Part shown: positions 2,159 through 26,782 of the stretch, in pieces
Layout: the number at the start of each line of letters is the position of its first letter
Numbering within the stretch: position 1 is the first letter of the stretch
NCBI GenBank assembly: GCA_963682135.1
Contig: OY821645.1
Coordinates: 2,272,001-2,336,000, forward strand
Source of the DNA: Methanothrix sp.
GTDB lineage: Archaea > Halobacteriota > Methanosarcinia > Methanotrichales > Methanotrichaceae
Direction of reading: 5' to 3'
DNA length: 64,000 nt
Position numbers and translations under genes: made by a program
The notes under the pieces: model-generated
What the model saw: the letters and a program-made list of their open reading frames with translations, nothing else
Database searches by the model: none
What the model was told of the DNA's origin: nothing

Positions 2159-2236
2159 GGACAACCCTGAGGACGGGAAGATATAAATTGGTGAGGCAAG
2201 GATGCACAAAGGATTGCTCTAGCTGGAGTGTTGATT

Positions 2237-2455
2237 ATGGGAAGTGTAAAACCTAGTTATATCAAGAATTTCGCAATGGATCTGTTGAGAACCTACGAAA
2301 GCTCATTTAGCCCCGACTTTGAACAAAACAAACTAAAAGTATCCGAGTATACCGACATCAAAAATAAGACCATACGGAATCGTGTGGCAGGATATATTTC
2401 TAATGTGATGCGGCAGAGACGCACTCGCCGAGGCGAGGTCGAGATTGATGTTTAA
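2237..2455 (+). CDS. rps17e: 30S ribosomal protein S17e
   Basis: MGSVKPSYIK...DFEQNK...IRNRVAGYI. Confidence 0.95.
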   Translation: MGSVKPSYIKNFAMDLLRTYESSFSPDFEQNKLKVSEYTDIKNKTIRNRVAGYISNVMRQRRTRRGEVEIDV

Positions 2456-3323
2456 AGGCGTGTTTCCTGCTATAATCACGCCGTTTTTAGAAGATGAGAG
2501 CTTAGATGAGGAGGGACTGAAGAAGAACATTAAGTACCTGAATAATACAGGTATAGCAGGTATTGTTCCCTGCGGCACAACTGGTGAGTCGGCCACATTA
2601 ACCTTTGAGGAGCATAAAAGGGTAGTGGAGATTGCTGTGGAATCCTCCAAAGTGCCGGTTATAGCTGGTACGGGTTCAAATAATACCCGCGAGGCTCTGG
2701 AGCTGACGCGCCATGCCGCCAAAGCAGGTGCATCTGCTGCTCTATTGATCACCCCTTACTACAATAAACCCAATGACAGGGGCATGTTCGAGCATTTCAA
2801 GACCGTCGCCGATAAGTGCGATATTCCCATTGTGCTCTATAATGTTCCCAAGAGAACCGGAATAGATCTCAAGCCGGAATTGGTCGCGAAGCTATCCAAG
2901 GTAAGGAACATCGTGGCCATAAAGGAGGCCAGCGGAAGCCTTTCTCAACAATCTCAGATTATCGAGCAGACCCGGGGCAGTGATTTTGTCGTTCTTTCGG
3001 GTGATGATGATCTGACTCTTCCTACCATGTCACTGGGCGCTCAGGGCGTCGTCTCAGTTGTGGCCAATGTGGCTCCCAGAAAGACGGTGGCCATGGTGGA
3101 CGCTATTTTGAAGGGCGACATGGAGAAAGCCAGGTCGCTGCACTATGAGCTTGCTCCACTGGTGCGAGCCATGTTCCTGGAGACCAATCCCATTCCGGTT
3201 AAGACGGCTCAAAGGTATCTGGGACTGGCCGGTGGACCGATGCGTCTTCCTCTGGCACCAATGGCTCCGGAGAAAGAGCTTATCTTAAAAGAGATACTCA
3301 ATCGGCTGGGCGAGAGAGCATGA
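2448..3323 (+). CDS. dapA: 4-hydroxy-tetrahydrodipicolinate synthase
   Basis: GTTGES, PYYNKP, LYNVP, IKEASG, ETNPIPVK motifs. Confidence 0.97.
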   Translation: MFKGVFPAIITPFLEDESLDEEGLKKNIKYLNNTGIAGIVPCGTTGESATLTFEEHKRVVEIAVESSKVPVIAGTGSNNTREALELTRHAAKAGASAALLITPYYNKPNDRGMFEHFKTVADKCDIPIVLYNVPKRTGIDLKPELVAKLSKVRNIVAIKEASGSLSQQSQIIEQTRGSDFVVLSGDDDLTLPTMSLGAQGVVSVVANVAPRKTVAMVDAILKGDMEKARSLHYELAPLVRAMFLETNPIPVKTAQRYLGLAGGPMRLPLAPMAPEKELILKEILNRLGERA

Positions 3324-4090
3324 CGAAGATCGCCATTACCGGTGCCCTGGGACGCATGGGCACTCTGGTCATCCAGGAAGCGGCCAAGGTTAAAAATATG
3401 CAGCTAGTGGCAGGACTAGATGCTATCGGGGCGGGGGCGACTCTCCCCGGCGGCATTATCGTTAGAGATGCCACAGAGCTGGAGTCGGTCTTGAGGGAGA
3501 GCAAACCGGATGTGATCATCGACTTTACCATCGCCAAAGCTGCGGTAAATAACGTATGCACGGCTGCGGGCCTTGGAATTGACCTCGTGGTGGGAACAAC
3601 CGGCTTTTCTGCTGAGCAGCATTCCCGGATGAAAGAAGCAATAGACGGCCATGTGGCCGCAGTCATAACGCCTAACTTCGCCCTGGGCGTAAATGTATTC
3701 TGGAAGCTGGTAGCCGATGCAGCGGCGGCACTCAGAGACTACGACATTGAGATCATTGAAGCTCATCACAATCAGAAGAAAGATGCCCCTAGCGGCACAG
3801 CTCTGGCCACAGTGCAGGCGATAAAGGCGGCTCTGGGCGAAAGAGAGGTCGTCTATGGCCGGGAAGGAGTCATGCCGCGAGGACGGGAGATTGGAGTACA
3901 TGCCGTGCGCGGTGGAGACATTGTAGGAGATCACACTGTGCTCCTGGCAGGAGCCGGCGAGCGGCTGGAGATAAAGCACCAGGCACATAGCAGAACCGCA
4001 TTTGCCAGCGGCGCCGTGCGGGCAGCAGATTGGGTAGCCGGCAAAGAACCCGGAATTTATACCATGGCTGACGTCCTAAAGTCGAGATGA
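3320..4090 (+). CDS. dapB: 4-hydroxy-tetrahydrodipicolinate reductase
   Basis: GALGRMG, GTTG, EAHHNQKKDAPSGTA motifs; follows dapA. Confidence 0.97.
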   Translation: MTKIAITGALGRMGTLVIQEAAKVKNMQLVAGLDAIGAGATLPGGIIVRDATELESVLRESKPDVIIDFTIAKAAVNNVCTAAGLGIDLVVGTTGFSAEQHSRMKEAIDGHVAAVITPNFALGVNVFWKLVADAAAALRDYDIEIIEAHHNQKKDAPSGTALATVQAIKAALGEREVVYGREGVMPRGREIGVHAVRGGDIVGDHTVLLAGAGERLEIKHQAHSRTAFASGAVRAADWVAGKEPGIYTMADVLKSR

Positions 4091-4512
4091 ACCAACTTGC
4101 TAAGTCCAGCCGTAATCTAATTTTTGAAGGAAAGACGCTGGAGCCAGTCTCATTAGAGCGCAATATGGTCGGATTTTGCAGCAAATGCGACCGGGATCTG
4201 GAGAGCCTGGCATATCACTGTACAGAATCAAGATGGCTGGTCTGTGCTCACTGCAATAATGAGCACCTTATTCTGATGTGCTATGACAGGCAGTGGAACT
4301 GGCAGGGTGACTATGATCTGGAGATCTATACGGAAAAGGTTAGCATATCCTCTGTTGCCAAAGAGAAGCTGCAAGCGGTATTTACTCAAGCTGAGATCAG
4401 GGACATGATGGCCTGCCAGCAGGGCTTGCCCTACACCCGGCAAAACCTCTATCGGGCGCGGGCCAAGTATGAGAAATTCGAGAAGCTCTTCGGCATAGTG
4501 ATAGACGTCTAG
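4087..4512 (+). CDS. hypothetical protein (CxxC, possible Zn ribbon)
   Basis: 141-aa ORF coupled to dapB (ATGA overlap); CSKC...C...H. Confidence 0.7.
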   Translation: MNQLAKSSRNLIFEGKTLEPVSLERNMVGFCSKCDRDLESLAYHCTESRWLVCAHCNNEHLILMCYDRQWNWQGDYDLEIYTEKVSISSVAKEKLQAVFTQAEIRDMMACQQGLPYTRQNLYRARAKYEKFEKLFGIVIDV

Positions 4513-11702: not shown

Positions 11703-12051
11703 GAAGCTGAGAGTATTCTTCATGCACCTGGTGGCTGCTCCGCCCCAGGTGTAACCATTTTTATTAATTTTATGCACTAAATAAATATAAATTTTTAATC
11801 TGCATTAAATCCTATCCGGAAAAAAGATACTGCCGCCGGATGACGAGCCGTCATTGGCTTCCAGGTTTCAATCCTTGTTTTTGTGGAACTCACCCACGGA
11901 GCTCAAGGGGCCGGATTATCCGATCAATATTATCGCGTTTCAATCCTTGTTTTTGTGGAACTCGCCCCCGGAGTTCATGCAGATTCGTGCAGAAGAGGCG
12001 CACCGTCCGGTTTCCCATGGAAAACCACATAAATCATAATCAGGAGGCGAC

Positions 12052-13377
12052 CTATTCACCTCCCCCGGATGGCCTTTTCTGGCCGGGTTTTGTTATAGAA
12101 ATGGCTCCAAGCTCACGCATAAGAGCATTCTTCCTGCTGCCCTCTTTCAGGTGATAAAAGGCGTCCACAATTGCAGCTACTCTATCCGTCAATTGCTCAT
12201 CCTGAAATGAAGGTGCCTGGCAGGACTTATCCTGACTTGCTCCTCTCGATCTGCATTCACCTTCCTGATACAGCTCCTGGTTGATAAGAAGATGATGAAT
12301 GAGACAGATAAGCTTCCTGGCTACAGCAATAGTGGCTACATTTGGCTCCTTCTTTTTGACCAACCTCTGGAAGAACCTGGAAAGCCGTGTATTTTTCATT
12401 CTTCCGATGGTCTTTGCAGCCTGAACCAGCATAACTCTAATGTACTTGGAACCCTTCTTTGTAATTCCGCATTTTTTCTTTTTGCCCGCAGATTCGCTTT
12501 CTCCAGGATTGAGGCCGCACCATTTAGCGAGTTGGTCAGGTGTCTGAAAATCACGGTAATTTCCAATTTCAGACAATATGGCCGATGCGGATACGAATCC
12601 AATTCCTGGAATTGACATGACGATGGCCAGGTCTTTGCTCTTCTGCTGAATCTTTTTCAGGACCTCATGGCTCAGCTTTTCTATTTTGGATTCGAGATTA
12701 TCAATGAATTCCAGGGCATCTATTAAGAGCATTCTGTTTGTATCATCAAGACTTCTTTCAAGTGCTACCCTAATTTCGTCTTGCTTTTTCCTTATTTTTC
12801 CGGATGGGATGCCTTTCAAGATCTTCTCGATGGACTTCTTTTTTGCCAGACCGTCCAAAATATATCTGCCGGATTTGCAGAATATGTCGTCCATGCAAGA
12901 ACTGAGTTTGATCCCGCATGATGAAAGGTATTTGTGTATCCGATTCCGGAACTGAGTTCGTGTCTTGACATATCCGGACCTGGCTCGAGTTAGAGTCCTG
13001 AGATCTCGGTCTTCATTGGTAAATACCCTAGAGCGCTTGATTTGATTGTTCAGGCAAAGAGATGCAATCCGCTTTGAGTCTTTTGAATCAGATTTGTCGT
13101 TGGGAATAGTCTTTATCTGCAACGGATTGGCAACGATTGTATCTATGGTTTTGCTCAATGCATCATAGATCGGTATCCAATAGACTCCAGTAGCCTCAAA
13201 TGCCACCTGTTCGCATTTGTTGGCTACCAGCCATTTGCGAAATTTCCTAAGTTCAGTTTTCGTTGTCCCAAAATCCATTCGAATCGGTTGAAAATCATCG
13301 CCTGTTATTGTTGCCACGATCAAATCTTTATGGACATCTGCACCGCAAACTCTATCTCTTCGTTTTTTCATATACAT
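12052..13377 (-). CDS. IS110-family (DEDD) recombinase/transposase
   Basis: GADVHKD, FEATGVYW, KSDSKDS (DEDD RuvC-like) and SIPGIG...GLNPGESESAGK (Tnp domain). Start likely at MYMKKRR (13377/13371) rather than the ORF-track GTG at 13533. Confidence 0.95.
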   Translation of the reverse strand: MYMKKRRDRVCGADVHKDLIVATITGDDFQPIRMDFGTTKTELRKFRKWLVANKCEQVAFEATGVYWIPIYDALSKTIDTIVANPLQIKTIPNDKSDSKDSKRIASLCLNNQIKRSRVFTNEDRDLRTLTRARSGYVKTRTQFRNRIHKYLSSCGIKLSSCMDDIFCKSGRYILDGLAKKKSIEKILKGIPSGKIRKKQDEIRVALERSLDDTNRMLLIDALEFIDNLESKIEKLSHEVLKKIQQKSKDLAIVMSIPGIGFVSASAILSEIGNYRDFQTPDQLAKWCGLNPGESESAGKKKKCGITKKGSKYIRVMLVQAAKTIGRMKNTRLSRFFQRLVKKKEPNVATIAVARKLICLIHHLLINQELYQEGECRSRGASQDKSCQAPSFQDEQLTDRVAAIVDAFYHLKEGSRKNALMRELGAISITKPGQKRPSGGGE

Positions 13378-13604
13378 TTCTGCCTGGTATGGGCAGATGA
13401 TGTTTCCCTGATATGAGATAATTTCCCATACGCGTTCTATGACGCAGTCCCGTATTCGGGGGATCTTGGCTCGTTTCAATCGCGGGATCAGCCGTCCCAT
13501 AAACTTGTCAGCCTTCACTGCCCATAACCACATTTAACGTGAACGGATTACAATATGTGGTTTTCCATCCGTCACGTGTGAGCCTCTGCCTGGGGCGCAT
13601 GGGC
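13378..13604 (-). ncRNA. putative bridge/seek RNA region of IS110 copy 1
   Basis: ~230-nt non-coding region upstream of the recombinase containing GTTTCAATC (13473-13481, first 9 nt of the repeat on +) and TTTCCCAT (13422-13429, element end junction); boundaries unknown. Confidence 0.6.
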
Positions 13605-14305
13605 GTTTCAATCCTTGTTTTTGTGGAACTCGCCCTCGGAGGATACCGATTTCAGTTATATCAAGTGTTTCACAAAGAAGTTTCAATCCTTGTTTTTGTG
13701 GAACTCGCCCTCGGAGTTTCTGCTATCCTGGCCGTCGCCGGGTAGTTCCTGAGTTTCAATCCTTGTTTTTGTGGAACTCGCCCTCGGAGATGTCTATCCT
13801 CATTCCGGTCCTACGAGCAAAGTCTTGTTTCAATCCTTGTTTTTGTGGAACTCGCCCTCGGAGGCAGAAGATGAAAAGATAGAGTACCGGATGAACGAGT
13901 TTCAATCCTTGTTTTTGTGGAACTCGCCCTCGGAGCAAACTACGGTCGATGCTATCAAGGCCAAGACTGAGTTTCAATCCTTGTTTTTGTGGAACTCGCC
14001 CTCGGAGCCAGGATGAAGCAACTTGACCTTTCCAGCTTCAAAAGGTTTCAATCCTTGTTTTTGTGGAACTCGCCCTCGGAGTCATTTAAGCCACCGCCTC
14101 TGTCCACTCATAGTTCAGTTTCAATCCTTGTTTTTGTGGAACTCGCCCTCGGAGGCCAAGATTACCCTCAAGGATGCAGCAGAGGTGGGTTTCAATCCTT
14201 GTTTTTGTGGAACTCGCCCTCGGAGGGACTGGACAATCAAGGGAAGCGGTGCCGTCACCGCCAGTTTCCCATGGAAAACCACATAAATCATAATCAGGAG
14301 GCGAC

Positions 14306-15631
14306 CTATTCACCTCCCCCGGATGGCCTTTTCTGGCCGGGTTTTGTTATAGAAATGGCTCCAAGCTCACGCATAAGAGCATTCTTCCTGCTGCCCTCTT
14401 TCAGGTGATAAAAGGCGTCCACAATTGCAGCTACTCTATCCGTCAATTGCTCATCCTGAAATGAAGGTGCCTGGCAGGACTTATCCTGACTTGCTCCTCT
14501 CGATCTGCATTCACCTTCCTGATACAGCTCCTGGTTGATAAGAAGATGATGAATGAGACAGATAAGCTTCCTGGCTACAGCAATAGTGGCTACATTTGGC
14601 TCCTTCTTTTTGACCAACCTCTGGAAGAACCTGGAAAGCCGTGTATTTTTCATTCTTCCGATGGTCTTTGCAGCCTGAACCAGCATAACTCTAATGTACT
14701 TGGAACCCTTCTTTGTAATTCCGCATTTTTTCTTTTTGCCCGCAGATTCGCTTTCTCCAGGATTGAGGCCGCACCATTTAGCGAGTTGGTCAGGTGTCTG
14801 AAAATCACGGTAATTTCCAATTTCAGACAATATGGCCGATGCGGATACGAATCCAATTCCTGGAATTGACATGACGATGGCCAGGTCTTTGCTCTTCTGC
14901 TGAATCTTTTTCAGGACCTCATGGCTCAGCTTTTCTATTTTGGATTCGAGATTATCAATGAATTCCAGGGCATCTATTAAGAGCATTCTGTTTGTATCAT
15001 CAAGACTTCTTTCAAGTGCTACCCTAATTTCGTCTTGCTTTTTCCTTATTTTTCCGGATGGGATGCCTTTCAAGATCTTCTCGATGGACTTCTTTTTTGC
15101 CAGACCGTCCAAAATATATCTGCCGGATTTGCAGAATATGTCGTCCATGCAAGAACTGAGTTTGATCCCGCATGATGAAAGGTATTTGTGTATCCGATTC
15201 CGGAACTGAGTTCGTGTCTTGACATATCCGGACCTGGCTCGAGTTAGAGTCCTGAGATCTCGGTCTTCATTGGTAAATACCCTAGAGCGCTTGATTTGAT
15301 TGTTCAGGCAAAGAGATGCAATCCGCTTTGAGTCTTTTGAATCAGATTTGTCGTTGGGAATAGTCTTTATCTGCAACGGATTGGCAACGATTGTATCTAT
15401 GGTTTTGCTCAATGCATCATAGATCGGTATCCAATAGACTCCAGTAGCCTCAAATGCCACCTGTTCGCATTTGTTGGCTACCAGCCATTTGCGAAATTTC
15501 CTAAGTTCAGTTTTCGTTGTCCCAAAATCCATTCGAATCGGTTGAAAATCATCGCCTGTTATTGTTGCCACGATCAAATCTTTATGGACATCTGCACCGC
15601 AAACTCTATCTCTTCGTTTTTTCATATACAT
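14306..15631 (-). CDS. IS110-family (DEDD) recombinase/transposase
   Basis: Translation identical to copy 1. Confidence 0.95.
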   Translation of the reverse strand: MYMKKRRDRVCGADVHKDLIVATITGDDFQPIRMDFGTTKTELRKFRKWLVANKCEQVAFEATGVYWIPIYDALSKTIDTIVANPLQIKTIPNDKSDSKDSKRIASLCLNNQIKRSRVFTNEDRDLRTLTRARSGYVKTRTQFRNRIHKYLSSCGIKLSSCMDDIFCKSGRYILDGLAKKKSIEKILKGIPSGKIRKKQDEIRVALERSLDDTNRMLLIDALEFIDNLESKIEKLSHEVLKKIQQKSKDLAIVMSIPGIGFVSASAILSEIGNYRDFQTPDQLAKWCGLNPGESESAGKKKKCGITKKGSKYIRVMLVQAAKTIGRMKNTRLSRFFQRLVKKKEPNVATIAVARKLICLIHHLLINQELYQEGECRSRGASQDKSCQAPSFQDEQLTDRVAAIVDAFYHLKEGSRKNALMRELGAISITKPGQKRPSGGGE

Positions 15632-15858
15632 TTCTGCCTGGTATGGGCAGATGATGTTTCCCTGATATGAGATAATTTCCCATACGCGTTCTATGACGCA
15701 GTCCCGTATTCGGGGGATCTTGGCTCGTTTCAATCGCGGGATCAGCCGTCCCATAAACTTGTCAGCCTTCACTGCCCATAACCACATTTAACGTGAACGG
15801 ATTACAATATGTGGTTTTCCATCCGTCACGTGTGAGCCTCTGCCTGGGGCGCATGGGC
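15632..15858 (-). ncRNA. putative bridge/seek RNA region of IS110 copy 2
   Basis: Same as copy 1; GTTTCAATC at 15727-15735. Confidence 0.6.
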
Positions 15859-16189
15859 GTTTCAATCCTTGTTTTTGTGGAACTCGCCCTCGGAGATTGA
15901 ACGATAATGTCACGGATGACAGTGGAAATGGTAAGTTTCAATCCTTGTTTTTGTGGAACTCGCCCTCGGAGTTCGGGGCGATATACTGGAGCTTTCCGGG
16001 TCGGAGGGTTTCAATCCTTGTTTTTGTGGAACTCGCCCTCGGAGCCTGGAACGGTCCGGCCAGTGCGGTGTCTGAGCTGTGTTTCAATCCTTGTTTTTGT
16101 GGAACTCGCCCTCGGAGAGGGAACATTTCGTTGAAGCCGACAAATTGATTGAGTTTCAATCCTTGTTTTTGTGGAACTCGCCCTCGGAG

Positions 16190-16500
16190 AGCGGCTTTTT
16201 TTCGTCCTTTTCCCTGTTTCTCATCGTCAAACCGGCCTTTTCTCACCCTCCTTAAATCATGAGTAGAATTTATTAGAGGGCTTATAAATTCATTCCGGCA
16301 GGTGGGCCAAAAAATAGGCTTCCTGCCAAAAAACAGATAATGCATACCTATTTCTGTTTTGCATATGCACCGTGACTTTTGTAAACCTATTTCTCATCTG
16401 CAAATATCCTCTTGGTAGAAAAAGGTTTTTATGGAAAGGCTTCCATAAAACATACTCAATGTGCGAGAGTTCGAATCCAGTGAATTACTCCATGCGCAAG
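16190..16500 (-). promoter_or_regulatory. CRISPR leader
   Basis: Non-coding, relatively AT-rich stretch between cas6 and the non-degenerate end of the array; TTTATAA TATA-like on - strand near 16282-16288. Confidence 0.7.
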
Positions 16501-16541
16501 ATTTTCTTCGCAGATGACTCGACTCTGATCTCAATATATTA

Positions 16542-17598: not shown

Positions 17599-20094
17599 TT
17601 AGATAATCATGGAGCCCCCTCCGGCTCCGTCACGCATGAATCCAGTCTCCTTATCATAATAGTTGGGCAGCTCATCTCTTGAAATGTAGCCCATCTCAGA
17701 TTCATCCGCGACCAGGTTATGAGCGTATTTCTCTGGTGCGGAGATCACGTACTCGCTGAAATCTTTCCTTATAGCCAGTTTCTTTCTCATTTGTTCTTTT
17801 ATGTCCTTCTCCATTTTCAAATCTTGATATTTCTTCCAGATTTCTGCAGCGGTTATATCAATCTCCACAAATACATTTACCTTGGGATAGTCGTCTTCAA
17901 TGAGCTTGAACTTCTTGCTAAGATCTTGGAAAGACAACTGCGCCAGACAGGCCAGGTTTTCTTTTGACTTCTCGTCACCCATGCCACTCTTGACCGACTT
18001 GAAGTACTTGTTATTCAACTCCAAAATAGCTGATTCTCGAATTGAATCATTAATCGGTTTTAGGATGTCCAGGGTTTTGCTCATCAAGAACGGATCGTAG
18101 ATATATCTATAAAATTCTTTTCGATCATCTCTTAAAATAAAAATTGATACCGTGCCCTTTTCTGATTTAGCTGAGTTCCTGTTGCACCTGCCTGCCACCT
18201 GGTTTATGGAGTCCATTGGAGCGAAGTCTCGGTAGACTGTGTGCGCATCGATGTCTACGCCAGCCTCGATCAATTGAGTGCTCACAATGACCTTTCTTTT
18301 TCGTGAAGATTCATCGGCTTTTTTTCCCAAAGACCCCTTGATACTTCGTATCCGCTCCAGCCTCTCTTTTGGAATCACATTTGTAGATAGGTAAAAATTC
18401 TCCGTGTTCTCCAACTCCAGGCTCTTGATAAAATGGTAAACATTGTTGGCCGAGTTAATGGTGTTGAGAACAATCAAGAAATCTTTTTCGGGATTGTTGG
18501 TTAGATCTTCTTGTATGATAGAATTGAATTCCTCCAGGGTCAAAGCCGTCTCAATTCTGGGAATTAGTCTAATCCTATCCAGGTCCCTGAAATACTCTTC
18601 TTTATTCTGAGTTATCTCTTTTATCTCTCCCAATGCCTCATCAAAGATAAGCGGCTGCGTTGCCGTAACGAAGATGACATAGCTATTGAACTTCTCGCAA
18701 AGCATTTTCGTTGCGTCGTGAATCAATTGCCAGTACTGGTGAGGAACTGCCTGTACTTCGTCCAGAATAATTATGGCGTTTGCTAGCTTATTGAATTTGC
18801 GCAGTAACTTATTTCGGTTAGAAAAAAGGGTATAGAAGAACTGCCAGAATGTTGTTACTATTATCTCTGCGTTCCAGCCCTCCAGGAGCAGCAAGCTTTC
18901 GTCTGCCTTATAAAATTCTTCGTCCTTATCCTCAATTTTGTAGTTTACATCTGCCAGATGATGGTGCTTGAGAAGAAGCCTGGAATCCTTAAGTTTTCCC
19001 CCCTGGCTGACTACATCTTCAAAGACATCGTAATTTTGATCTATTATGCTCAGAAAGGGCAGAGCGTAGATTATCCTTGGCGTGAAATCTTTCTTATTCT
19101 TCAATCGGTCTCTCAGCTTTAGGGCAAAAGAAAGAGAAGTCAAAGTCTTGCCGGTGCCGGTTGGGACATTCAACGAGAGAATTCTGTTGTCCAGGTTCCA
19201 ATCCCTAACTCCTATCATTGTATCTTCGTAGATCTGATTCCTGAGATTATTAATATTATTTCTGTCCGAAGTGAACCCTTTCCGTTCTCTATACAGATCT
19301 ACCAGGTCTGCTGGAAGGTCTAAACGATCTGTATCTAGATCTTTGTCTCCTAGCCCCGCGTCGGTCTTGTCTGCATCCAAGAGGGCGGAGTAGAGAAACT
19401 GAGTTATGAAATATGGGTAAAGATCGGTCTTTTCACGAAGATACCTTATCATTCGCTCATCTTTTCTACTGATTTCCTTGCACGCATTTTGCAAAATATA
19501 GTTAGAAATATCATTAATATCGATTTTTAAATTTATCGTTCCTTCTCGAAAAAGCAATGCAAGAATTTGGTTTATCTCGCCTTTATCCATAGACTCAATT
19601 TGCTCTTTCGCTACTTGCAGAATTTTCTCCCTCTCCACATCCACTTCACTTATCTCGCCCATGGCGTTCATGAGGTTTCCGTGATGCTTCTTCACGGCCA
19701 GGAAAGATAATATTGGCAGAAAATTCGCTAATTCACCATTTCTTCCCGATTGGCTAAGGTATTCTTTGATTACCGCGTAAGTAAAGAAAGCAGAGAGCCG
19801 GCCATGATGGGTGCTTTCCTTGGCTTTGAGGGACTTCTTTTTTCGCTCATCTTTCTCAATAATGTATTCCTGGAAAAATCTCGTAGCTTTTCCCAGGTCG
19901 TGCGTTACACCTATGAGATAAGCAGCGTCTGCCAGGAGATCCTTATCATCTATGTTTAGAGATTTGTCTGTTACTGTTTTTCTGCTCAATTGCCCCACTT
20001 TTCTCAAGTGATCCACCAAAAGCCTGATTCGACCATCCTGCGAATCCGGGCGAGACTTGAGCTTAAAGGAATACGATTCGCTCTCGCTTTTCAT
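17599..20094 (-). CDS. cas3: CRISPR-associated helicase/nuclease Cas3 (HD + SF2 helicase)
   Basis: HDLGK HD motif, PTGTGKT, DEVQ, STQLIEAGVDID, QVAGRCNR. Confidence 0.97.
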   Translation of the reverse strand: MKSESESYSFKLKSRPDSQDGRIRLLVDHLRKVGQLSRKTVTDKSLNIDDKDLLADAAYLIGVTHDLGKATRFFQEYIIEKDERKKKSLKAKESTHHGRLSAFFTYAVIKEYLSQSGRNGELANFLPILSFLAVKKHHGNLMNAMGEISEVDVEREKILQVAKEQIESMDKGEINQILALLFREGTINLKIDINDISNYILQNACKEISRKDERMIRYLREKTDLYPYFITQFLYSALLDADKTDAGLGDKDLDTDRLDLPADLVDLYRERKGFTSDRNNINNLRNQIYEDTMIGVRDWNLDNRILSLNVPTGTGKTLTSLSFALKLRDRLKNKKDFTPRIIYALPFLSIIDQNYDVFEDVVSQGGKLKDSRLLLKHHHLADVNYKIEDKDEEFYKADESLLLLEGWNAEIIVTTFWQFFYTLFSNRNKLLRKFNKLANAIIILDEVQAVPHQYWQLIHDATKMLCEKFNSYVIFVTATQPLIFDEALGEIKEITQNKEEYFRDLDRIRLIPRIETALTLEEFNSIIQEDLTNNPEKDFLIVLNTINSANNVYHFIKSLELENTENFYLSTNVIPKERLERIRSIKGSLGKKADESSRKRKVIVSTQLIEAGVDIDAHTVYRDFAPMDSINQVAGRCNRNSAKSEKGTVSIFILRDDRKEFYRYIYDPFLMSKTLDILKPINDSIRESAILELNNKYFKSVKSGMGDEKSKENLACLAQLSFQDLSKKFKLIEDDYPKVNVFVEIDITAAEIWKKYQDLKMEKDIKEQMRKKLAIRKDFSEYVISAPEKYAHNLVADESEMGYISRDELPNYYDKETGFMRDGAGGGSMII

Positions 20095-20773
20095 TCTCTA
20101 CCTCCCAAAGTTCCTTTGCCTTGGCTTTGATGCACTCTCCGTTCCTTTCAAACAGAATCTCGCTGTAGTCAGTTACTTCTCTTGCTTCTCCCATCTCGCC
20201 TGGCATCACTTCTGAGAAGTATTCCTTTCCTTCCTCGAAATCCGGCTCAAGAAGGCATTTACCAGGCACCACGCTATCGATATCCTGGACATCTTCGCCT
20301 GAATTATGTAGCCCAAACTCACCAATGAATTTAAAGTTGCAGATGAGCTCGCTTAGTCCAAGACACGGAGTATACACCGACTGGTGACTGATGAGCAAGT
20401 CTTTAAGCTTTTTATACAATTGCTCATCGGAGTGAGAGAAATAAATTCTATAATTCGGATCTTTGACGAACTCGAATCTGATCTGGGTTCTGTTTTTGAT
20501 CAGATGCATCTTAAATGCGCTCTTGGTATCAATCAGGTTCTCTCCAATCCTCACTTTTTTCACGGGCGCCATAATTTTGCAGCCTATTTGTGCATCAACC
20601 TTAAAGAAGTGCCTGAAATACTCCGCTTTATCCAGACCGACAATGGCCCCGATCAGCCCAGAGAGAGCCGTTCGGGGTGGGAAAGAATAGGTGAGTGGAG
20701 AGCTGGTAGAGTAATTCTTCCTAAAATGGGCGTAGTCCCCCCACACATCGAATACTATTACTCTCTCCGGCAT
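20063..20773 (-). CDS. cas5: type I-B Cas5
   Basis: FDVWGDYAHFRK..SSPLTYSFPPRTALSGLIGAIVG. Confidence 0.95.
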   Translation of the reverse strand: MPERVIVFDVWGDYAHFRKNYSTSSPLTYSFPPRTALSGLIGAIVGLDKAEYFRHFFKVDAQIGCKIMAPVKKVRIGENLIDTKSAFKMHLIKNRTQIRFEFVKDPNYRIYFSHSDEQLYKKLKDLLISHQSVYTPCLGLSELICNFKFIGEFGLHNSGEDVQDIDSVVPGKCLLEPDFEEGKEYFSEVMPGEMGEAREVTDYSEILFERNGECIKAKAKELWEVENEKRERIVFL

Positions 20774-20780
20774 CTGGACC

Positions 20781-21809
20781 TCAAAACGCTATTGGCTTTA
20801 TGGCTATGCCGGTAGCTGCTGCCAATCCTTCAATTGGGAAACCGGCCCCTTCTTTGCAGAACTTAATTCTGTCGTCCACGCAAATCTCAATATCCTTGAT
20901 TGAGCCCTTCTCAGCAGCAAGTTTATTGACCAGCTCCGATATCTCCAGCTGGTAATCTATGGTGTCACGAATATTCTCATGAGGCATCTCGGTTACCAGT
21001 TTCAGCATCTTATCCAGATCCCCGATGTGATAACTCTCTTTGCTGTAATTCACCTTAAGGAGCAACCTGGGAACCTGTCCTGCTTTAGATCTGGAAATCA
21101 GGCTCTTGGTTCCATTCCAGATGCCATCCAGCAAAAGTTTTACATCATCTTCTGAGAGACCGGTGTGCTTAGCAGCGTTCTCATTTATTATACCATAGAA
21201 TGATATTAGTGAATATGGCAGAAAATCTTCTTCTCTGAACGTTGCTCTTGTAGATTTATCATCAGATGCAAAAGCTCCTTTACCCCTAAAATGCTTCATC
21301 GAGACACGATGAAGAGATCGACCGATCTTGAACTGTACTGGTCCCGTAAAGGTCAAAGATCCTTTTTCATCTTTTTCTTTATTGGTATCTTTATCGTTTT
21401 CAGTTTTTTTTCCGGGCTTTACTTTAATCTCCAAAGGTATTGTAGCACCAAATAATCTAACATCCAAGCAATTAGCTAAAATTCTATCAGATATAATTTT
21501 TCTTTGTTGTTCAAATGATAATTCTTTGATATCTACAGTTTCATCTTTTAAGAAGTCCATTGCTCTTTTCTTTGCTGTTTGCATATTGCCGCTATCATCC
21601 TTTATTTCTCGAATAAAGATCTCTTTGCCCTTAAAGTCATACAGAAAATCTCGAATAGTTCTCTTTAATCGGACATCTGTTACAATATTTACACCAGTTT
21701 CCTCGTCCATCCTAGGCTTGTTTTCATCCAGAGGATCCCCATTTGGATTTCCATCTCTTATGTCGTAGATGAAAATAATCTCTGACCTGTTCTTTATAGT
21801 TTCGCTCAT
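20781..21809 (-). CDS. cas7: type I-B Cas7/Csh2
   Basis: NPNGDPLDENKPRMD..VTDVRLKRTIRD; DVRLFGA; TGPVQF. Confidence 0.95.
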   Translation of the reverse strand: MSETIKNRSEIIFIYDIRDGNPNGDPLDENKPRMDEETGVNIVTDVRLKRTIRDFLYDFKGKEIFIREIKDDSGNMQTAKKRAMDFLKDETVDIKELSFEQQRKIISDRILANCLDVRLFGATIPLEIKVKPGKKTENDKDTNKEKDEKGSLTFTGPVQFKIGRSLHRVSMKHFRGKGAFASDDKSTRATFREEDFLPYSLISFYGIINENAAKHTGLSEDDVKLLLDGIWNGTKSLISRSKAGQVPRLLLKVNYSKESYHIGDLDKMLKLVTEMPHENIRDTIDYQLEISELVNKLAAEKGSIKDIEICVDDRIKFCKEGAGFPIEGLAAATGIAIKPIAF

Positions 21810-23706
21810 TCTTGTGTCTCCCCTTCAATCTCTGGCTCATCTTCTGTTGAATTCTTGAACAACTTATGCAAATCCATTCCCAAAACAAAATAGAAGCTTA
21901 GCTCGTCATCTCCTTCTTTCCAATTTATTCCAGACGAGACAAAGTGATTTGCAATGATCTCTTCCAGTTGCCGATAATAATTCTTGTCGTACTCTTCCAG
22001 CTTAATTTGAATTTTTGGAAGGAGTCTCTTGATCAGTGCTTCATTCATCTTCAAGCCATGTAATTTATTGCGAAATGGAGTTGCATTTTTGTCCCTCCAC
22101 TGTATGTTAAGGAGCTTCTGAGTCAATACCCCTTCCAAAAAGGTCGCCTTCTTAGAATCGCTATTGAAGAACGCCTTATTTGCTTCGAAGAACCTCTCAA
22201 TACGTAGCTCTAATGGGAGGCTTTCCAGCTCTTCGATGCGAAGAACCTCACGTTCCTGTTCATTCATGTCTTTCATCTCCGCGTTCTTTGCTTTGAAAAG
22301 AATTAGCTTCTCTATGTAGTGCAAGAGCAAGAAGCCATTCAATGAAGTTATCTTAGTAGAATAACCCTTTATGAACGCCTCTCTTACCTTACTCATTATA
22401 AAATCTATCAACAAATAATAGCTGATTTGATCTCCAACAAATATCTTGTCAACCATTTCCAAGAATATTTTATCGAAAGTTCTATTTTTAGATTCGGATG
22501 GGAAGAATCGTCTCAAAACTCCAAAATTAAAAACTAATTGGTGGTTTTCCCTCTGACCTTCGCCTAATATTAAATCATTATAAATTTTGAATATCTCATC
22601 CACTTTTTCTTTGGCTTTGAAAAGTGCTCTTAGTCTTGATGGAAAAATTCCCTCAATTAAAAGGAGGATTCTATATGATGATTGCTCCTTCTTATAAAAT
22701 ATCAAGCTGTTGCTAAAGAAATCTTTTTCATCTTTGACAGCATCACAGCATCAATGATCTTATACTCGTCAGAAGTTATCATGTTCTTATCATCACGATT
22801 TAGTTTTAGCTCCCGTTTTTGTTCCTTCTTACCCAGGATGCTCAATACCTCTTTAAGGAGCTTTTTATCATCTCCTTTAAACGTTATTTTTGGCACGAGG
22901 AGATATCTGAAGCCGTAGAAGCTAAAGTCAAGGTTTTCTTCGATGTACTTCTTTCCAACTTCCAGACGCGTGGCACAATCGAAACATACTGGTGTATTCT
23001 TCCAGGATTCATTGACATCAAATCCACCTGCAATAAATCCAGGCTTATCAAAGGTGTGGAAAGTCCAGGGAATAGCGAAGCCATATACTTCATCTTTGAC
23101 CCCTTTGCAGACTGAGCAGGCAGCATTTTTTCCCCGCGATTCTCCATGAGTCTTCTTAAGAAAATACTTGTCCTTACCCATTCGAAGCAAGATCTTTTCA
23201 AAAATCGGACATTTGCTAAGATAAGAATAGTCTTCGCCATTTTCAAAACCCAGAGTGATAATGGCGTTATCTTTCGAGTCTTTTTCGGAGTATTCCTCTT
23301 GTAGTCCTGCCAAAATTTTATCTCTCTGATCATTGATTGCGATTTTCATCTTTTTGAGGATCTCCTTTTCTTCCTCAGAAATATCATAGCTATCATAATT
23401 CTCGAACCATTTTAGGAATCTATTCTGGAAGGTCTTTTCTAAATTGCCCGCCAATTTGCTCGTGGGTGTCGCGTCAGTGCCATTTGGAGCACCTTTTTTA
23501 TATAAATATAAATTAAAATCTGTCTTAAACTCGTCTCGTATAACACGGCTAAAAGAATACTCCCCGTCCTTTTCGCATAATAATACTAATAATACCCATT
23601 TATATTTTCCATTGCTATTGGGATTCTCGATATATGTGGAAAGCGAATCTACTCCCACACTATTCTTTTGGATGTAGTCCCCGATTTTGCTTACCGCTTC
23701 AATCAC
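21806..23706 (-). pseudogene. cas8b: type I-B Cas8b/Csh1, frameshifted into two ORFs (22702-23706 and 21806-22705)
   Basis: Position upstream of cas7; CSVC..FHTFDKPGF..PVCFDC and C-terminal FLEGVL..YFVLG; tandem ACAGCATC x2 at 22737-22752 shifts the frame. Confidence 0.88.
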
Positions 23707-23722
23707 CCGAAATCACCATCAA

Positions 23723-24388
23723 TCAAACGCAAATATTCCTGTACGTGCAGTCCACGCACCTGGCCTTCTGCTTTGTCCCATCGGGAAAGTATCCCTTCTG
23801 AATTATCATTAGTATCTCGCGCACAATCTCCTTTGCTTTCTCATAATCTTTTTTCTTGAAGTCTATCTCGGCGACATAATTATTGCTTCTTGTGTAGCAC
23901 ACAAAGCCCCTCTTCACTTCAACCCCGAAGTGTTCCATGATGAGCAGCCCGTAAAGAGCCGCCTGAAATTTGTGCGTCCTGTAAATTGTATTTTTAAACA
24001 TGGCATACTTGTAATCCAAAGGCGCAGCGGTCCCATCATCCAGAAAGAGAACTTCGTCTACCTCTCCCTTGAAGTGATGCTTGTGAGAAGTCAGGTAAAC
24101 CGAAATCTCCTTTCCCGTGCAATTCAACTTCTTTCGGACATAATCCCGGTTTACCTTCTCTCGGATCTCGTGAAGCTCCCTGCCCTTCAAGACCTTGTAG
24201 CGGCGCTCCTCTCTCTGAGCGATGCCCAGGCAGTGCATGAAAAATATGAACCTCGGGCAGAACAGCCACTCCAGCGCATCAGATACCGTGACGAAAATCT
24301 CCTGCGCGGGTGCGCTCCCACTCGCGCCCTCCTGCACCCGCCCGCGCGTGGCCGCGGTCGTGGTCTCTTCCTCTGCCCCCGTCTTCAT
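23723..24388 (-). CDS. cas4: CRISPR-associated exonuclease Cas4
   Basis: FCPR, GEVDEV..PLDYK, QAALY, C-terminal CVDCTYRNIC. Confidence 0.95.
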   Translation of the reverse strand: MKTGAEEETTTAATRGRVQEGASGSAPAQEIFVTVSDALEWLFCPRFIFFMHCLGIAQREERRYKVLKGRELHEIREKVNRDYVRKKLNCTGKEISVYLTSHKHHFKGEVDEVLFLDDGTAAPLDYKYAMFKNTIYRTHKFQAALYGLLIMEHFGVEVKRGFVCYTRSNNYVAEIDFKKKDYEKAKEIVREILMIIQKGYFPDGTKQKARCVDCTYRNICV

Positions 24389-24395
24389 TTCGCCC

Positions 24396-24594
24396 TCAGA
24401 ACACCTTGGTAATCGTCATTCCCGCCACCAGCTCCCGGTCAAATCCTGCCCCGATTAGCTTGATCTTTTCAAAGCAGTCCTCGCACATGGGAAAGACGTA
24501 GACGGAATCCGATTCATCGATGACCGCCTCGCACTCCAGGGCCAGAGAGTCGGACTGATTACGGTTCAAATCGCCCAGAAAGGCGCTCTTCTGC
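24396..24594 (-). pseudogene. cas2: duplicated 3' part of cas2
   Basis: QKSAFLGDLNRNQ...MTITKVF nearly identical to the C-terminal part of 25383-25670; N terminus missing. Confidence 0.85.
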
Positions 24595-24669
24595 CGCCCG
24601 GAACAGGCCGTAGTTTTTGCATAAGCAAAATTATGCGGCGAGATGATACGGGTTTTCAACCGATAGCAT

Positions 24670-24828
24670 CTAAATAAGCGGCTTAAAAGGGACAGACTTG
24701 TTCTCTTCGTCCGGGCAATCTTCATTTAGCCACTCTAAGTCGCCATCGCTCAATTGGTCTATGACGGCATCTAGGTAAGCCCCTTTATCCGTGACGACAT
24801 GCCTTTCCTGCATAATTTCAACTGCCAT
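24670..24828 (-). CDS. small acidic protein (52 aa), possible antitoxin
   Basis: ATG preceded by AGGGG; MAVEIMQERHVVTDKGAYLDAVIDQLSDGDLEWLNEDCPDEENKSVPFKPLI*; below the ORF-track length cut-off. Confidence 0.5.
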   Translation of the reverse strand: MAVEIMQERHVVTDKGAYLDAVIDQLSDGDLEWLNEDCPDEENKSVPFKPLI

Positions 24829-24900
24829 TTAAACCCCTGGTCATGCATCTGCTTTCGATCTATATAATTCTTTAGACAAATGGATTTTTGTAGAATATAA

Positions 24901-25197
24901 TCAAATTCTATAGTCTGTATTTCTCCTCTTAGTTATTATTATATCTACCACATCAACAATGTGCGCGAGGTCATCTACCGTATACTCTATTCTTGTTTGT
25001 GCTCCTATTCGGATGCGATATTTGCGCGGATTAGATCCCGCTATCGGTGAGATATCCATCATTGGGCGAGGTGTATATGGGTCTATGCTTAATTCATTTA
25101 TGCGATCCGATATAATAACTGCCGCCTCATGGTTCAGTCGATTGAATTTATTCAAAACCTTATTCGCTCTCGTTTTTATTGTAATCTCATATGGCAA
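24901..25197 (-). CDS. RelE/ParE-family toxin
   Basis: YEITIKTRANKVL..INELSIDPY..KYRIRIG..RIEYTVD..RRNTDY; AGGAG RBS. Confidence 0.85.
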   Translation of the reverse strand: MPYEITIKTRANKVLNKFNRLNHEAAVIISDRINELSIDPYTPRPMMDISPIAGSNPRKYRIRIGAQTRIEYTVDDLAHIVDVVDIIITKRRNTDYRI

Positions 25198-25382
25198 CCT
25201 TTCTTCTCCTTAAATTTCTACGGTTAGATGCGAGATCAGACGACCACAGCAAACCATACAGCTTGTTGATAGATCCCCGGCGACATATAGTTATGCCGTA
25301 GAACGAAAGTAATCTGGGAGGGGCACGATTCATCCCGCCTTTGAAATGGCAGGAATTCTCTGTCCCCGTCTTCATTTCGCCC

Positions 25383-25670
25383 TCAGAACACCTTGGTAAT
25401 CGTCATTCCCGCCACCAGCTCCCGGTCAAAGCCCGCCCCGATTAGCTTGATCTTTTCATTGCAGTCCTCGCACATCGGAAAGACGTAGACGGAATCCGAC
25501 TCCTCAATGACCGCCTCGCACTCCAGGGCCAGAGAGTCGGACTGATTACGGTTCAAATCCCCCAGGAAGGCGCTCTTCTGCACCCGGAACAGGCCGTAGT
25601 TCTTGCACAGCTTCGCCACCCGGCTTCTGATTCTGTTCTCGGATATGTCGTAAATGACCCAGACCAGCAT
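25383..25670 (-). CDS. cas2: CRISPR-associated endonuclease Cas2
   Basis: LVWVIYDISENRIR..CKNYGLFRVQKSAF. Confidence 0.96.
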   Translation of the reverse strand: MLVWVIYDISENRIRSRVAKLCKNYGLFRVQKSAFLGDLNRNQSDSLALECEAVIEESDSVYVFPMCEDCNEKIKLIGAGFDRELVAGMTITKVF

Positions 25671-25672
25671 TA

Positions 25673-26782
25673 TCAACCTCGATTACTATCATTCTGATCC
25701 GCATTGGGCTCTCTTGCCGGTGTTTCGCATGATGTGCTTTCTCGTTCTCCTCCGCCATCTTCCCCATCCAGCTCCAGGATATTTTGATCATAATCCTCCG
25801 CCAGCTCCTGGCCTGGTCGGATGAGCGAATTGGCAATCCTGTGGCACTCCATCTGAATGGTGTTACGGGTCTTGATATTGCGGCCCCGGTAGAGAATCGT
25901 CTCCTCGAAATTCTTGTTGAGAGCCTCGATGAGGGCAGCTTTGCCGTCCTTGGAGAGGCCCATGCCCTGCTCCAGCGGCTCGAAGAACTCGTCTTTGATC
26001 ATGCGCCTGCTGAAGAGATAGACCACAGTCTCATCCACGTAAATGCGAAACATCTCAATGATATCAAAGACCAGTGACATCTTGTTGTAAGAGTCGGTGT
26101 GCAAAAAACCCACGTAGGGATCCAAGCCGGCGATGATGCAGCCCTTTTCCACCATCGAATAGAGAACGCCATATCCGTAGTTGAGCAGAGCATTGAACTC
26201 GTCTTTAGCCGGATTTCTGCTCCTTCCGGCAAAGCGATACTTCTCGGGCATGATGGCGGAGATGGCATTGAAGTAGGCCCGCGCCGCTTTGCCCTCCAAT
26301 CCGAGCATATCCTGCCGCCGGGCGTCGATGCTGCCCCGCAGCCTCTTCATCTGCTCTTTGGACTGCTCAATCTCCTCGATGAACCCATCCAGCTCCACTC
26401 TCTTCTCCTCTCTGGTCTTCCTCAATTTGACCAGAAGCAGAGTCTGGTTGTCCAATTTCTTCAGGCCCCACTCTTTAGCCAAATTCAGGCCGTCCGTTGT
26501 GTCGTAAATCTCCAGTTGCCTTCTGCGAATCAATGTGGTGCTGCCCAGCTTGGGATGCCATACCCTGCCGTAGGGGTCCCCGTGGGAATCAAGAAAAACG
26601 ATATCAATGTTGTTGTCCACAGCCAGCTTGATGGCATCGGTAGTGATATATGCAGACGTTGTAATTAAAATGCTACTGACTTTGCCCACCGCTACTTCAA
26701 AACTCCTATCCTCTCTCTTTACTAGAAAACAGTTCCCGCTCTTGCGAAGATATGCACCATAGCTGTTGATTACAAGCTGCAC
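25673..26782 (-). CDS. cas1: CRISPR-associated integrase Cas1
   Basis: LEGKAARAYF, NALLNYGYGVLY, GLDPYVGFLH, LVFDIIEMFR. Confidence 0.97.
   Translation of the reverse strand: MQLVINSYGAYLRKSGNCFLVKREDRSFEVAVGKVSSILITTSAYITTDAIKLAVDNNIDIVFLDSHGDPYGRVWHPKLGSTTLIRRRQLEIYDTTDGLNLAKEWGLKKLDNQTLLLVKLRKTREEKRVELDGFIEEIEQSKEQMKRLRGSIDARRQDMLGLEGKAARAYFNAISAIMPEKYRFAGRSRNPAKDEFNALLNYGYGVLYSMVEKGCIIAGLDPYVGFLHTDSYNKMSLVFDIIEMFRIYVDETVVYLFSRRMIKDEFFEPLEQGMGLSKDGKAALIEALNKNFEETILYRGRNIKTRNTIQMECHRIANSLIRPGQELAEDYDQNILELDGEDGGGERESTSCETPAREPNADQNDSNRG

Follow-up and report, generated by a model that had tools for sequence, protein, structure and literature searches.

How does a mobile element come to lie, twice over, at exactly the same point of a CRISPR array? 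The question is raised by a stretch of 64,000 nucleotides from the genome of the archaeon Methanothrix sp. (contig OY821645.1; the whole stretch is referred to below as the window), in which a type I-B CRISPR array is interrupted by two copies of a 1590-bp insertion sequence (IS) of the IS110 family. The analysis presented here makes it very probable that this is an active element, whose DEDD recombinase would be guided by a bridge/seek RNA from the element's own 5′ non-coding region and aimed at the word that ends the CRISPR repeat.

The two copies, A and B (Table 1), are 100% identical, share the same orientation and lie at the same repeat/spacer boundary of two different repeats, each bracketed by GTTTC; length, placement and orientation were as described in an initial, sequence-only reading of the locus. 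In the sense of the CRISPR RNA (crRNA), which is that of the minus strand, every repeat ends in ATTGAAAC. Read in this direction, a whole repeat precedes each element, and GAAAC followed by the old spacer comes after it. The repeat-to-repeat gaps that hold the elements measure 1631 and 1633 nt, that is, 1590 + 5 plus a spacer of 36 or 38 nt. Excision of the element together with one GTTTC therefore leaves a normal array, and the reconstruction of 16 repeats and 15 spacers put forward in the earlier reading was reproduced in full. Since the spacers flanking the two copies differ, and all 15 are distinct, the copies reflect two separate insertions and not the duplication of a block, again as had been proposed.

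The genome, a single contig of 3,043,341 bp, contains one array with this repeat. A DNA search of the genome returned three identical copies of the element and one relative that is 67% identical. The third copy lies outside CRISPR arrays, between a membrane-protein gene and a glycosyltransferase-like gene, at the look-alike word ATATGAAAC; the flank on the left ends in ..GGATATGAAAC, and the one on the right begins with GAAAT.

The element holds a single gene, of the IS110 type. The gene product carries an N-terminal DEDD/RuvC-like domain (PF01548; E = 2.4e-21, residues 13-155) and a C-terminal Transposase_20 domain (PF02371; E = 3.1e-24, residues 254-337), and it scores 254 bits, against a cut-off of 140, with the NCBIfam model NF033542, "IS110 family RNA-guided transposase". 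The solved transposase of IS621 is weakly, though genuinely, similar (E = 4.7e-6); in that weak alignment the GxD and ESx motifs, which may belong to the catalytic residues (DEDD plus serine), fall together, with GAD opposite GID and ES(A) opposite ES(G). Non-coding DNA makes up about 220 nt on the upstream side of the gene and about 37 nt on its downstream side. The ends also have the character of the family, with no long terminal inverted repeats, no true target duplication and a short shared core. A perfect subterminal inverted repeat, with one arm 36 nt in from the left end and the other 2 nt in from the right end, is retained with changes in the 67%-identical relatives. Tn7-like genes (TnsA/B/C with TnsD/TniQ) were absent from the element. 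Judged by its protein and its ends, the element is a member of the IS110 family. Directly after the stop codon of the recombinase gene, a 9-bp hairpin is followed by a T-rich run (12042-12064 and 14296-14318, minus strand).

A consensus fold built from 29 distinct aligned left regions of relatives predicts a bridge/seek RNA, in which an outer stem, AUGGGCAG / CUGCCCAU, surrounds a target loop and a donor loop. The first internal loop is closed by GGCU/AGCC and has a small hairpin in its middle, while the second carries the segment ATGGGAAA. The predicted left target guide, GAUUGAAAC, forms the 3′ side of the target loop; the DNA coding for it, GATTGAAAC, occupies element positions 124-132 and has exactly the sequence of the final 9 nt of the CRISPR repeat. 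A candidate right target guide, CAAGUUU, lies on the 5′ side of the loop, and its GUUU alone (the complement of AAAC, or of AAAT by wobble) is matched at most sites. About 50 nt past GATTGAAAC, the donor segment ATGGGAAA equals the element's right end plus GAAA, and the predicted left donor guide, AUGGGAAA, is placed there (Table 1). As for the other end of the element, a segment GAGGGUUU in two relatives (L044 and L050) fits their own left ends, and the group to which the window's copies belong is without a comparable segment. One strand of the outer stem, AUGGGC, complements the left end, GCCCAT, but it is constant where the left end changes and is therefore read as structure and not as a guide. 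A search of the Rfam families gave no match inside the element at E values up to 1, the only sequences matched being the CRISPR repeats.

The decisive evidence for a guide RNA is a sequence comparison among relatives, in which the putative guides covary with the flanks. Over a sample of 30 distinct guide/flank pairs in 12 guide classes, an element's own left flank shared on average 4.50 of 8 variable positions with its guide, against 1.96 for the flanks of elements with other guides. The sister guides GGCTAAAAC, GTTTAAAAC, CACAAAAC and CCCTAAAC each match their own flank word. Across the loop, the opposite strand complements the right flank: UUAUUUUU with AAAAATAA in L016, UUAAUUUU with AAAACTAA in L014, CCCUUU with AAAGGG in L004, UCAUUUU with AAAATGA in L045, and likewise in L052. 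The donor guides behave in the same manner, ATGGGAAA accompanying the right end CATGGGAAA and the segment ATGTGAAA (RNA AUGUGAAA) occurring exactly where the right end is CATGTGAAA (L049 and L052). The loop strands thus match, and covary with, the target and the element ends, as in RNAs of the IS110 family. Together with the protein matches, these findings uphold the earlier assignment of the element to the RNA-guided IS110 family. Among elements 84-100% identical, the guide spelled GATTGAAAC is unchanged.

The 67%-identical sister element of the same genome (L004, G000:C1:3001954-3003390; element at about 1486-3013) has the guide CCCTAAAC and is inserted at ..CTCTAAAC / GAAAGGG. By sequence, this different guide shows natural reprogramming within one genome. 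Sisters with the guide GGCTAAAAC (L014, L016, L017 and L018, all from one metagenome-assembled genome, MAG) occupy four or more copies of a longer intergenic sequence that is itself repeated, with both flanks similar across tens of bases, and provide an example of another multi-copy target.

Table 1. Positions, within the window, of the CRISPR locus, of the two element copies in it and of their parts.
Feature	Position	Strand	Remarks
IS110-family element, copy A, 1590 bp	12015..13604	-	after the 14th repeat from the leader
IS110-family element, copy B, 1590 bp	14269..15858	-	after the 5th repeat from the leader
GTTTC on the spacer side of copy A	12010..12014	.	partner at 13605-13609 is the start of the next repeat
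GTTTC pair flanking copy B	14264-14268 and 15859-15863
Transposase/recombinase gene, copy A	12052..13383	-	443 aa counted from MYMKKRR; DEDD_Tnp_IS110 + Transposase_20
Transposase/recombinase gene, copy B	14306-15637	-
Subterminal inverted repeat, copy A	left arm 13555-13568, right arm 12017-12030		14 nt, perfect; read directly
Subterminal inverted repeat, copy B	15809-15822 and 14271-14284
Predicted bridge/seek RNA, copy A	13386..13528	-	consensus fold; copy B 15640-15782
Predicted left target guide GAUUGAAAC	13473..13481 (copy B: 15727-15735)	-	3′ side of target loop; same as the repeat's final 9 nt
Candidate right target guide CAAGUUU	13501..13507 (copy B: 15755-15761)	-	5′ side of target loop
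Predicted left donor guide AUGGGAAA	13422..13429 (copy B: 15676-15683)	-	same as right end of the element plus core
CRISPR array, 16 repeats of 37 nt and 15 spacers	11865..16189	-	repeat and spacer reading; Rfam
Leader region, AT-rich	16190..16541, extent approximate	-	separates the first repeat from the last gene of the cas cluster
Type I-B cas genes cas1, cas2, cas4, cas8b (two open reading frames), cas7, cas5, cas3	17599..26782	-	same direction as the array

Insertion sites of relatives were then compared. A protein search against one genome per species gave 19 loci, all in Methanothrix or Methanotrichaceae, and a DNA search with the left 260 nt found a match in 57 of 105 genomes of the family, that of the window included. 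The resulting genome sample comprised 35 left-end junctions with the GATTGAAAC guide, fragments and miniature copies included. Loci representing the same place were counted once (L002, L003 and L025 with L001 and the window; L026-L032 as duplicates of L006-L011 and L021; L029 = L055; L066 = L019; L007 = L060), and L020 and L023, which are without a left end, contributed right junctions only. Nineteen of the 35 junctions were found at the 3′ end of a CRISPR repeat and 16 elsewhere. Of the 19, 17 have a 36-nt flank that recurs 3-38 times within the locus, spaced as repeats are; the remaining two are located at the ends of contigs, and for them the sequence alone is repeat-like.

Metagenome contigs were scanned with an exact left-end pattern, neutral as to flank, which was present in at least 120 stretches. 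The stretches listed contained 124 junctions, reduced to 102 unique ones by 70-nt flank identity, and all metagenome counts in this text are among these listed matches. CRISPR repeat ends accounted for 65 of the 102, 57 of them in confirmed arrays and 8 with repeat-like flanks at contig edges; the 37 others include one degenerate repeat and the guide DNA of one other copy. The guide-RNA region was present in 60 junctions, of which 36 were at CRISPR repeats. Four repeat families have been colonised (23, 22, 13 and 7 unique sites), and the ATTGAAAC end is the sole part common to them. Some arrays hold more than one copy: two in one array of genome G035, two in L072, and three plus a nested one in a 38-repeat array of G076. 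Flanks tabulated in the genome and its relatives showed, in both samples, the repeat ends that the sequence-only reading had led one to expect. The other copies did not lie at unrelated sites, which would have refuted that reading; the remainder outside arrays were at solitary words resembling (A)TTGAAAC or ATTGAAAC. Viral contigs gave no exact match of the left-end pattern. Among 1414 distinct spacers from all the arrays collected, none matched any of four element variants beyond chance hits of 12-17 nt.

The junctions suggest what the element reads at its target. All 28 CRISPR right junctions are GAAAC followed by unbiased bases. At 25 non-CRISPR right junctions, the base after GAAA is C in 16 cases, T in 8 and G in 1, and the following bases are again unbiased. 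The left, repeat-side junction retains C even where the right junction has T; therefore, the crossover would fall within GAAA, and the C would belong to the element. As far as these alignments show, the GTTTC/GAAAC bracket is a crossover core with GAAA (element sense) shared, plus one base, and not a 5-bp target duplication. At the 37 non-CRISPR metagenome sites, TGAAAC is near-invariant, with T at -6 in 37 of 37 and G at -5 in 35; further out, T at -7 occurs in 26 and A at -8 in 25. Read from the junctions, the target is about 8 nt long, (G)ATTGAAA[C/T], and lies entirely on the repeat side, the spacer side being free beyond the C/T. Since reading is confined to the repeat side, insertion could take place before any spacer, and every repeat of a suitable array would be a target.

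Such short, one-sided reading also explains the self-insertions found at three loci (L007, which equals L060, L087 and L159), where one copy lies inside the guide-coding GATTGAAAC of another. The host copy in L007 (position 4370/4371) is without its first 127 nt, as after recombination of tandem left ends. We considered whether a right flank of AAACTTG compensates for a weak left match, as seen in L011 and L059; all four bases were matched in no more than 2 of the 25 non-CRISPR and 2 of the 28 CRISPR sites, and such compensation is therefore unsupported as a general rule. Integration of the element by Cas1-Cas2 as a giant spacer was likewise rejected, there being no repeat duplication and many non-array sites.

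Because the third copy and about a third of all sites lie outside arrays, the specificity is for the 8-nt word and not for CRISPR as such, with arrays as the main reservoir. The earlier claim that the element targets CRISPR repeats was therefore supported, with one correction: the guide does spell the repeat-end word and insertion into arrays is recurrent, but what is targeted is the word, wherever it stands.

We propose the following sequence of events. The target-loop strand 5′-GAUUGAAAC-3′ equals the top strand to the left of the insertion point and, by analogy with IS621, would pair with the bottom strand; on the opposite strand of the loop, GUUU would pair with AAAC, or with AAAT by wobble. 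Together, both strands would specify about 8 nt, (G)ATTGAAA[C/T], the conserved 3′ end of many CRISPR repeats, which forms the 5′ tag of the crRNA. In the donor loop, AUGGGAAA would stand for the element's right end and the core. Recombination within the shared GAAA would leave a full repeat on the left and GAAAC with the old spacer on the right, and spacer acquisition, by making new repeats, would provide additional targets. We infer the base pairing, the strand bound, the position of the crossover and the benefit to the element, as well as the notions, taken over from the sequence-only reading, that the element parasitises the array and that its targets are renewed by spacer acquisition.

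Several observations weigh against this proposal. The stems of the predicted RNA are mostly invariant, with changes on both sides in only 3 of 26 predicted pairs, and the fold is therefore plausible, not proven. No covarying complement of the left end, which would serve as right donor guide, was found in the donor loop or upstream of it. The site of the third copy matches the guide over 6 contiguous bases only, and the guide's G at -9 is unfavoured at the non-CRISPR metagenome sites (7 of 37). The genome and metagenome samples overlap, MAGs being derived from metagenomes, and the relatives are not independent of one another. Neither the circle junction nor an empty site was seen in the contigs of the public runs X1, X2, X5 and X7. 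In these runs, contigs failed to bridge the junctions at the same spots with 31 letters on both sides, and loose contig ends corresponded only to the flanks of the third copy and to further non-array sites. Finally, four of the six copies in G035 lie outside arrays, though most of its ATTGAAAC words are apparently within them: 162 occurrences of the word compare with 28 of a control word, and most of the places listed are in arrays. The data do not demonstrate that arrays are preferred over and above the abundance of the word. In the window's genome, ATTGAAAC occurs 132 times, 16 of these in repeats, two in the array copies and one in the third copy; with uniform insertion across the 129 words present beforehand, the probability of finding at least two of three copies in the array would be about 0.04. 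Array insertions may also be lost through repeat-repeat recombination.

These figures bear on a possible, though not a probable, alternative, namely that a coincidence of words is all that links the element to CRISPR: a short word of about 8 nt is targeted, and arrays are hit merely as holders of many copies, with no adaptation shaped by CRISPR. The 16 genome junctions and 37 unique metagenome junctions outside arrays would fit this account, as would the third copy in the window's genome and the four in G035. Sister elements carrying different guides are directed to different repeated words, and multi-copy targets are usual in the family, as exemplified by ISPpu9 in repetitive extragenic palindromic (REP) sequences in the available text of PMC12288879. 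Yet the guide is unchanged across elements 84-100% identical, and its word is exactly the conserved crRNA tag. In addition, the spacer side is left unread, while sister elements pair 2-5 nt further there, and four unrelated repeat families have been colonised, some arrays several times. The two accounts differ only in whether selection acted, and they are not exclusive.

A further idea, which we consider rather improbable, is that the element lives off CRISPR expression. The target word fixes the orientation of insertion; array copies are therefore co-directed with the pre-crRNA, so that the leader promoter could drive the element and Cas6 could cut before it. Read-through from the leader would then transcribe the guide RNA and the recombinase, and Cas6 would release a pseudo-crRNA made of the 8-nt crRNA tag and the first 36 nt of the element, a segment that is spacer-sized and ends at the subterminal repeat. 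The repeat's own end, ..AAC, precedes every copy and the circle junction, and the pseudo-crRNA would on that account read the copies as "self". The array would thus serve as a safe harbour and as a platform for promoter activity and processing.

Recombination between repeats of the array, whether by unequal crossing-over or by gene conversion, is a very unlikely source of the second copy there, as opposed to a second transposition. Array rearrangements next to elements are known in G035 and L008; duplication of a block, however, would have carried the adjacent spacer along, whereas all 15 spacers are unique and those on either side of the two copies differ, and the third identical copy elsewhere in the genome indicates recent mobility. 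Mis-assembly of one of the two array copies, which their complete identity and the breakage of short-read contigs at element ends might suggest, is scarcely credible given a single-contig genome, the different flanking spacers and the multi-copy arrays in the independent assemblies G035 (two copies), G076 (three and a nested one) and L072 (two).

RNA-guided insertion by way of IS110-family recombinases provides the closest parallel to the mechanism proposed for the window's element. Bridge-RNA recombinases of the IS621/IS110 group were reportedly also the subject of work by Hiraizumi and colleagues in 2024. In this group, according to the available text of Durrant et al. (2024, PMC11208160), the recombinase is accompanied by an upstream guide RNA with two internal loops, one for the target and one for the joined ends. 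The element described here resembles the group in its DEDD and Tnp-domain recombinase, in a guide RNA located upstream of the gene, in the two loops for target and joined element ends, in a core contained inside the guides and in the lack of a real target duplication. Besides the weak protein similarity mentioned above, it differs from IS621 in having subterminal inverted repeats and in the position of the long guide that matches the top strand, which is on the 3′ side of the target loop here and on the 5′ side in the accessible description of IS621. The right-hand half of the target is also essentially unread here, and the target is a CRISPR repeat end.

In IS1111-type elements (ISEc11, ISPa11 and ISKpn4), as set out in the available part of Siddiquee et al. 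(2024, PMC11187229), the seekRNA has the top-strand complement ahead of the bottom-strand match, the order being opposite in the IS110 type, and the non-coding region is found on the downstream side of the transposase gene. Measured against that description, the window's element is like the IS1111 group in its subterminal inverted repeats and in the order of its guides, CAAGUUU preceding GAUUGAAAC, and unlike it in having the non-coding region upstream of the gene. Of three features of the narrow IS110 subgroup in the same source, it has one, the upstream non-coding region; subterminal repeats and guide order differ. An IS110-like position of the non-coding region is therefore combined with an IS1111-like guide order and IS1111-like subterminal repeats in a mixed layout.

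Other elements have been connected with CRISPR arrays. In cyanobacterial Tn7-like transposons, TnsD/TniQ recognises the CRISPR repeat and insertion occurs at a fixed distance inside the spacer; arrays were proposed to be a safe and transferable landing site (Chacon Machado and Peters 2025, PMC11837452, available text). Going by that text, the systems have in common a minimal mobile element, a fixed position in the array and multiple copies, and they differ in that recognition is through the element's own RNA, at the repeat/spacer boundary and in an archaeal host here, and protein-guided and within the spacer there. The resemblance is limited to the choice of target. For Thermus IS1000, the available part of Blesa et al. 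(2019, PMC6352166) reports a reference sequence with a 32-bp end segment identical to Thermus CRISPR repeats, and takes this to mean that CRISPR recruits IS segments, not that arrays are targeted. IS1000A/B also belong to the IS110 family, but they represent a different phylum and a different element lineage from the archaeal one described here. The case, as far as that portion of the paper goes, illustrates in print how IS boundaries and CRISPR repeats can be confused, and calls for caution in annotation.

Insertion into multi-copy host repeats has precedents in ISPpu9, found in REP sequences (PMC12288879), and in ISPpu10, an IS110 element at a multi-copy host repeat (bioRxiv 10.64898/2026.03.19.712850); in the accessible text of both sources, the target is REP or other intergenic sequence and not CRISPR. 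A preprint on "half-match" recombination (10.64898/2026.08.31.748434) was set aside as a precedent for one-sided reading, the comparison in its available text being between donor-only and target-only matching and not between left and right halves. The term "CRISPR array" does not occur in the available main text of Durrant et al. (2024, PMC11208160). Our literature search found no paper on an IS110-family element that targets CRISPR repeats, though natural targets tabulated in the supplements to the 2024 papers of Durrant and of Siddiquee and to the preprints of 2026 may include one. The mechanism is that of the IS110/IS1111 RNA-guided recombinases.

Insertion of this kind would have consequences for the array. 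Each event would cut off the next spacer from its upstream repeat, leaving that repeat intact, and no normal crRNA would therefore be expected from the spacer so parted. The hairpin and T-run after the recombinase gene, if they act as a terminator, may halt pre-crRNA read-through into the older part of the array. Such elements may wear away immune memory, bring about fusion or duplication of parts of arrays, and be spread along with CRISPR loci. Targeting of arrays concerns widespread methanogens and four repeat families, often with several insertions per array, and in it one RNA-guided system, an IS110 transposon, would be aimed at the storage locus of another. The element may also represent a natural case of minimal one-sided recognition, with about 8 nt on one side of the crossover and an arbitrary sequence on the other, its own guide DNA being hit as well. 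Bridge/seek-RNA recombinases are programmable genome-writing tools in development, for which natural targets reveal the guide lengths and mismatches that are tolerated.

Derivatives of the element were found among the relatives. One is a gene-less miniature of about 87 bp, in which the first 45 nt or so of the left end are joined to about 40 nt ending in the right-end motif (examples are L048, element-sense 1501-1586, and L053, element-sense 195-281). Its flanks are unchanged in type, ..TGAAAC on the left and GAAAC or GAAAT on the right, and it accounts for 13 of the unique metagenome junctions among the matches listed, 4 of them in arrays. Presumably, the miniature is mobilised in trans. Genomes G042, G057 and others gave many matches to left-end positions 1-45 only.

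Two loci showed rearranged arrays. In L056 of genome G035 (G035:C1:2744000-2751400), the array with two IS copies contains a series of three consecutive spacers in duplicate, and one set directly adjoins a copy; this points to a duplication within the array. In L008, the element (2781-4369) lies after the last of 31 repeats and is followed by one spacer and two repeats of a different family, an arrangement that may have resulted from fusion of two arrays through recombination between elements.

Within the window, 14 of the 16 array repeats are identical, and the two that differ, by 1 and 2 bases, are at the low-coordinate end, distal to the leader. The Rfam family CRISPR-DR7 matched all 16 repeats on the minus strand (E = 3e-4), with 34.5 bits, or about 30.5 for two of the repeats, all of these scores being below the gathering score of 37. 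With its regular repeats, unique spacers and adjoining cas genes, the locus has the make-up of a type I-B CRISPR array, and a profile search of the cas cluster matched models specific for type I-B (Cas5b, Cas7/Csh2 and Cas8b/Csh1). Leader and cas cluster share the strand of the array and are located on its high-coordinate side; therefore, the array would be transcribed from right to left.

The cas8b gene is broken into two open reading frames (ORFs) in different frames (22702-23706 and 21806-22705), each matching half of the Cas8b/TM1802 models, with an 8-bp tandem duplication at the break (window positions 22737-22752, minus strand). Split in this way, cas8b may leave type I-B interference disabled in this strain. 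The cluster also contains two cas2-like ORFs (24396-24725 and 25383-25676), of which one match is full (E = 1.8e-19) and one partial (E = 1.1e-6), with additional small ORFs between them.

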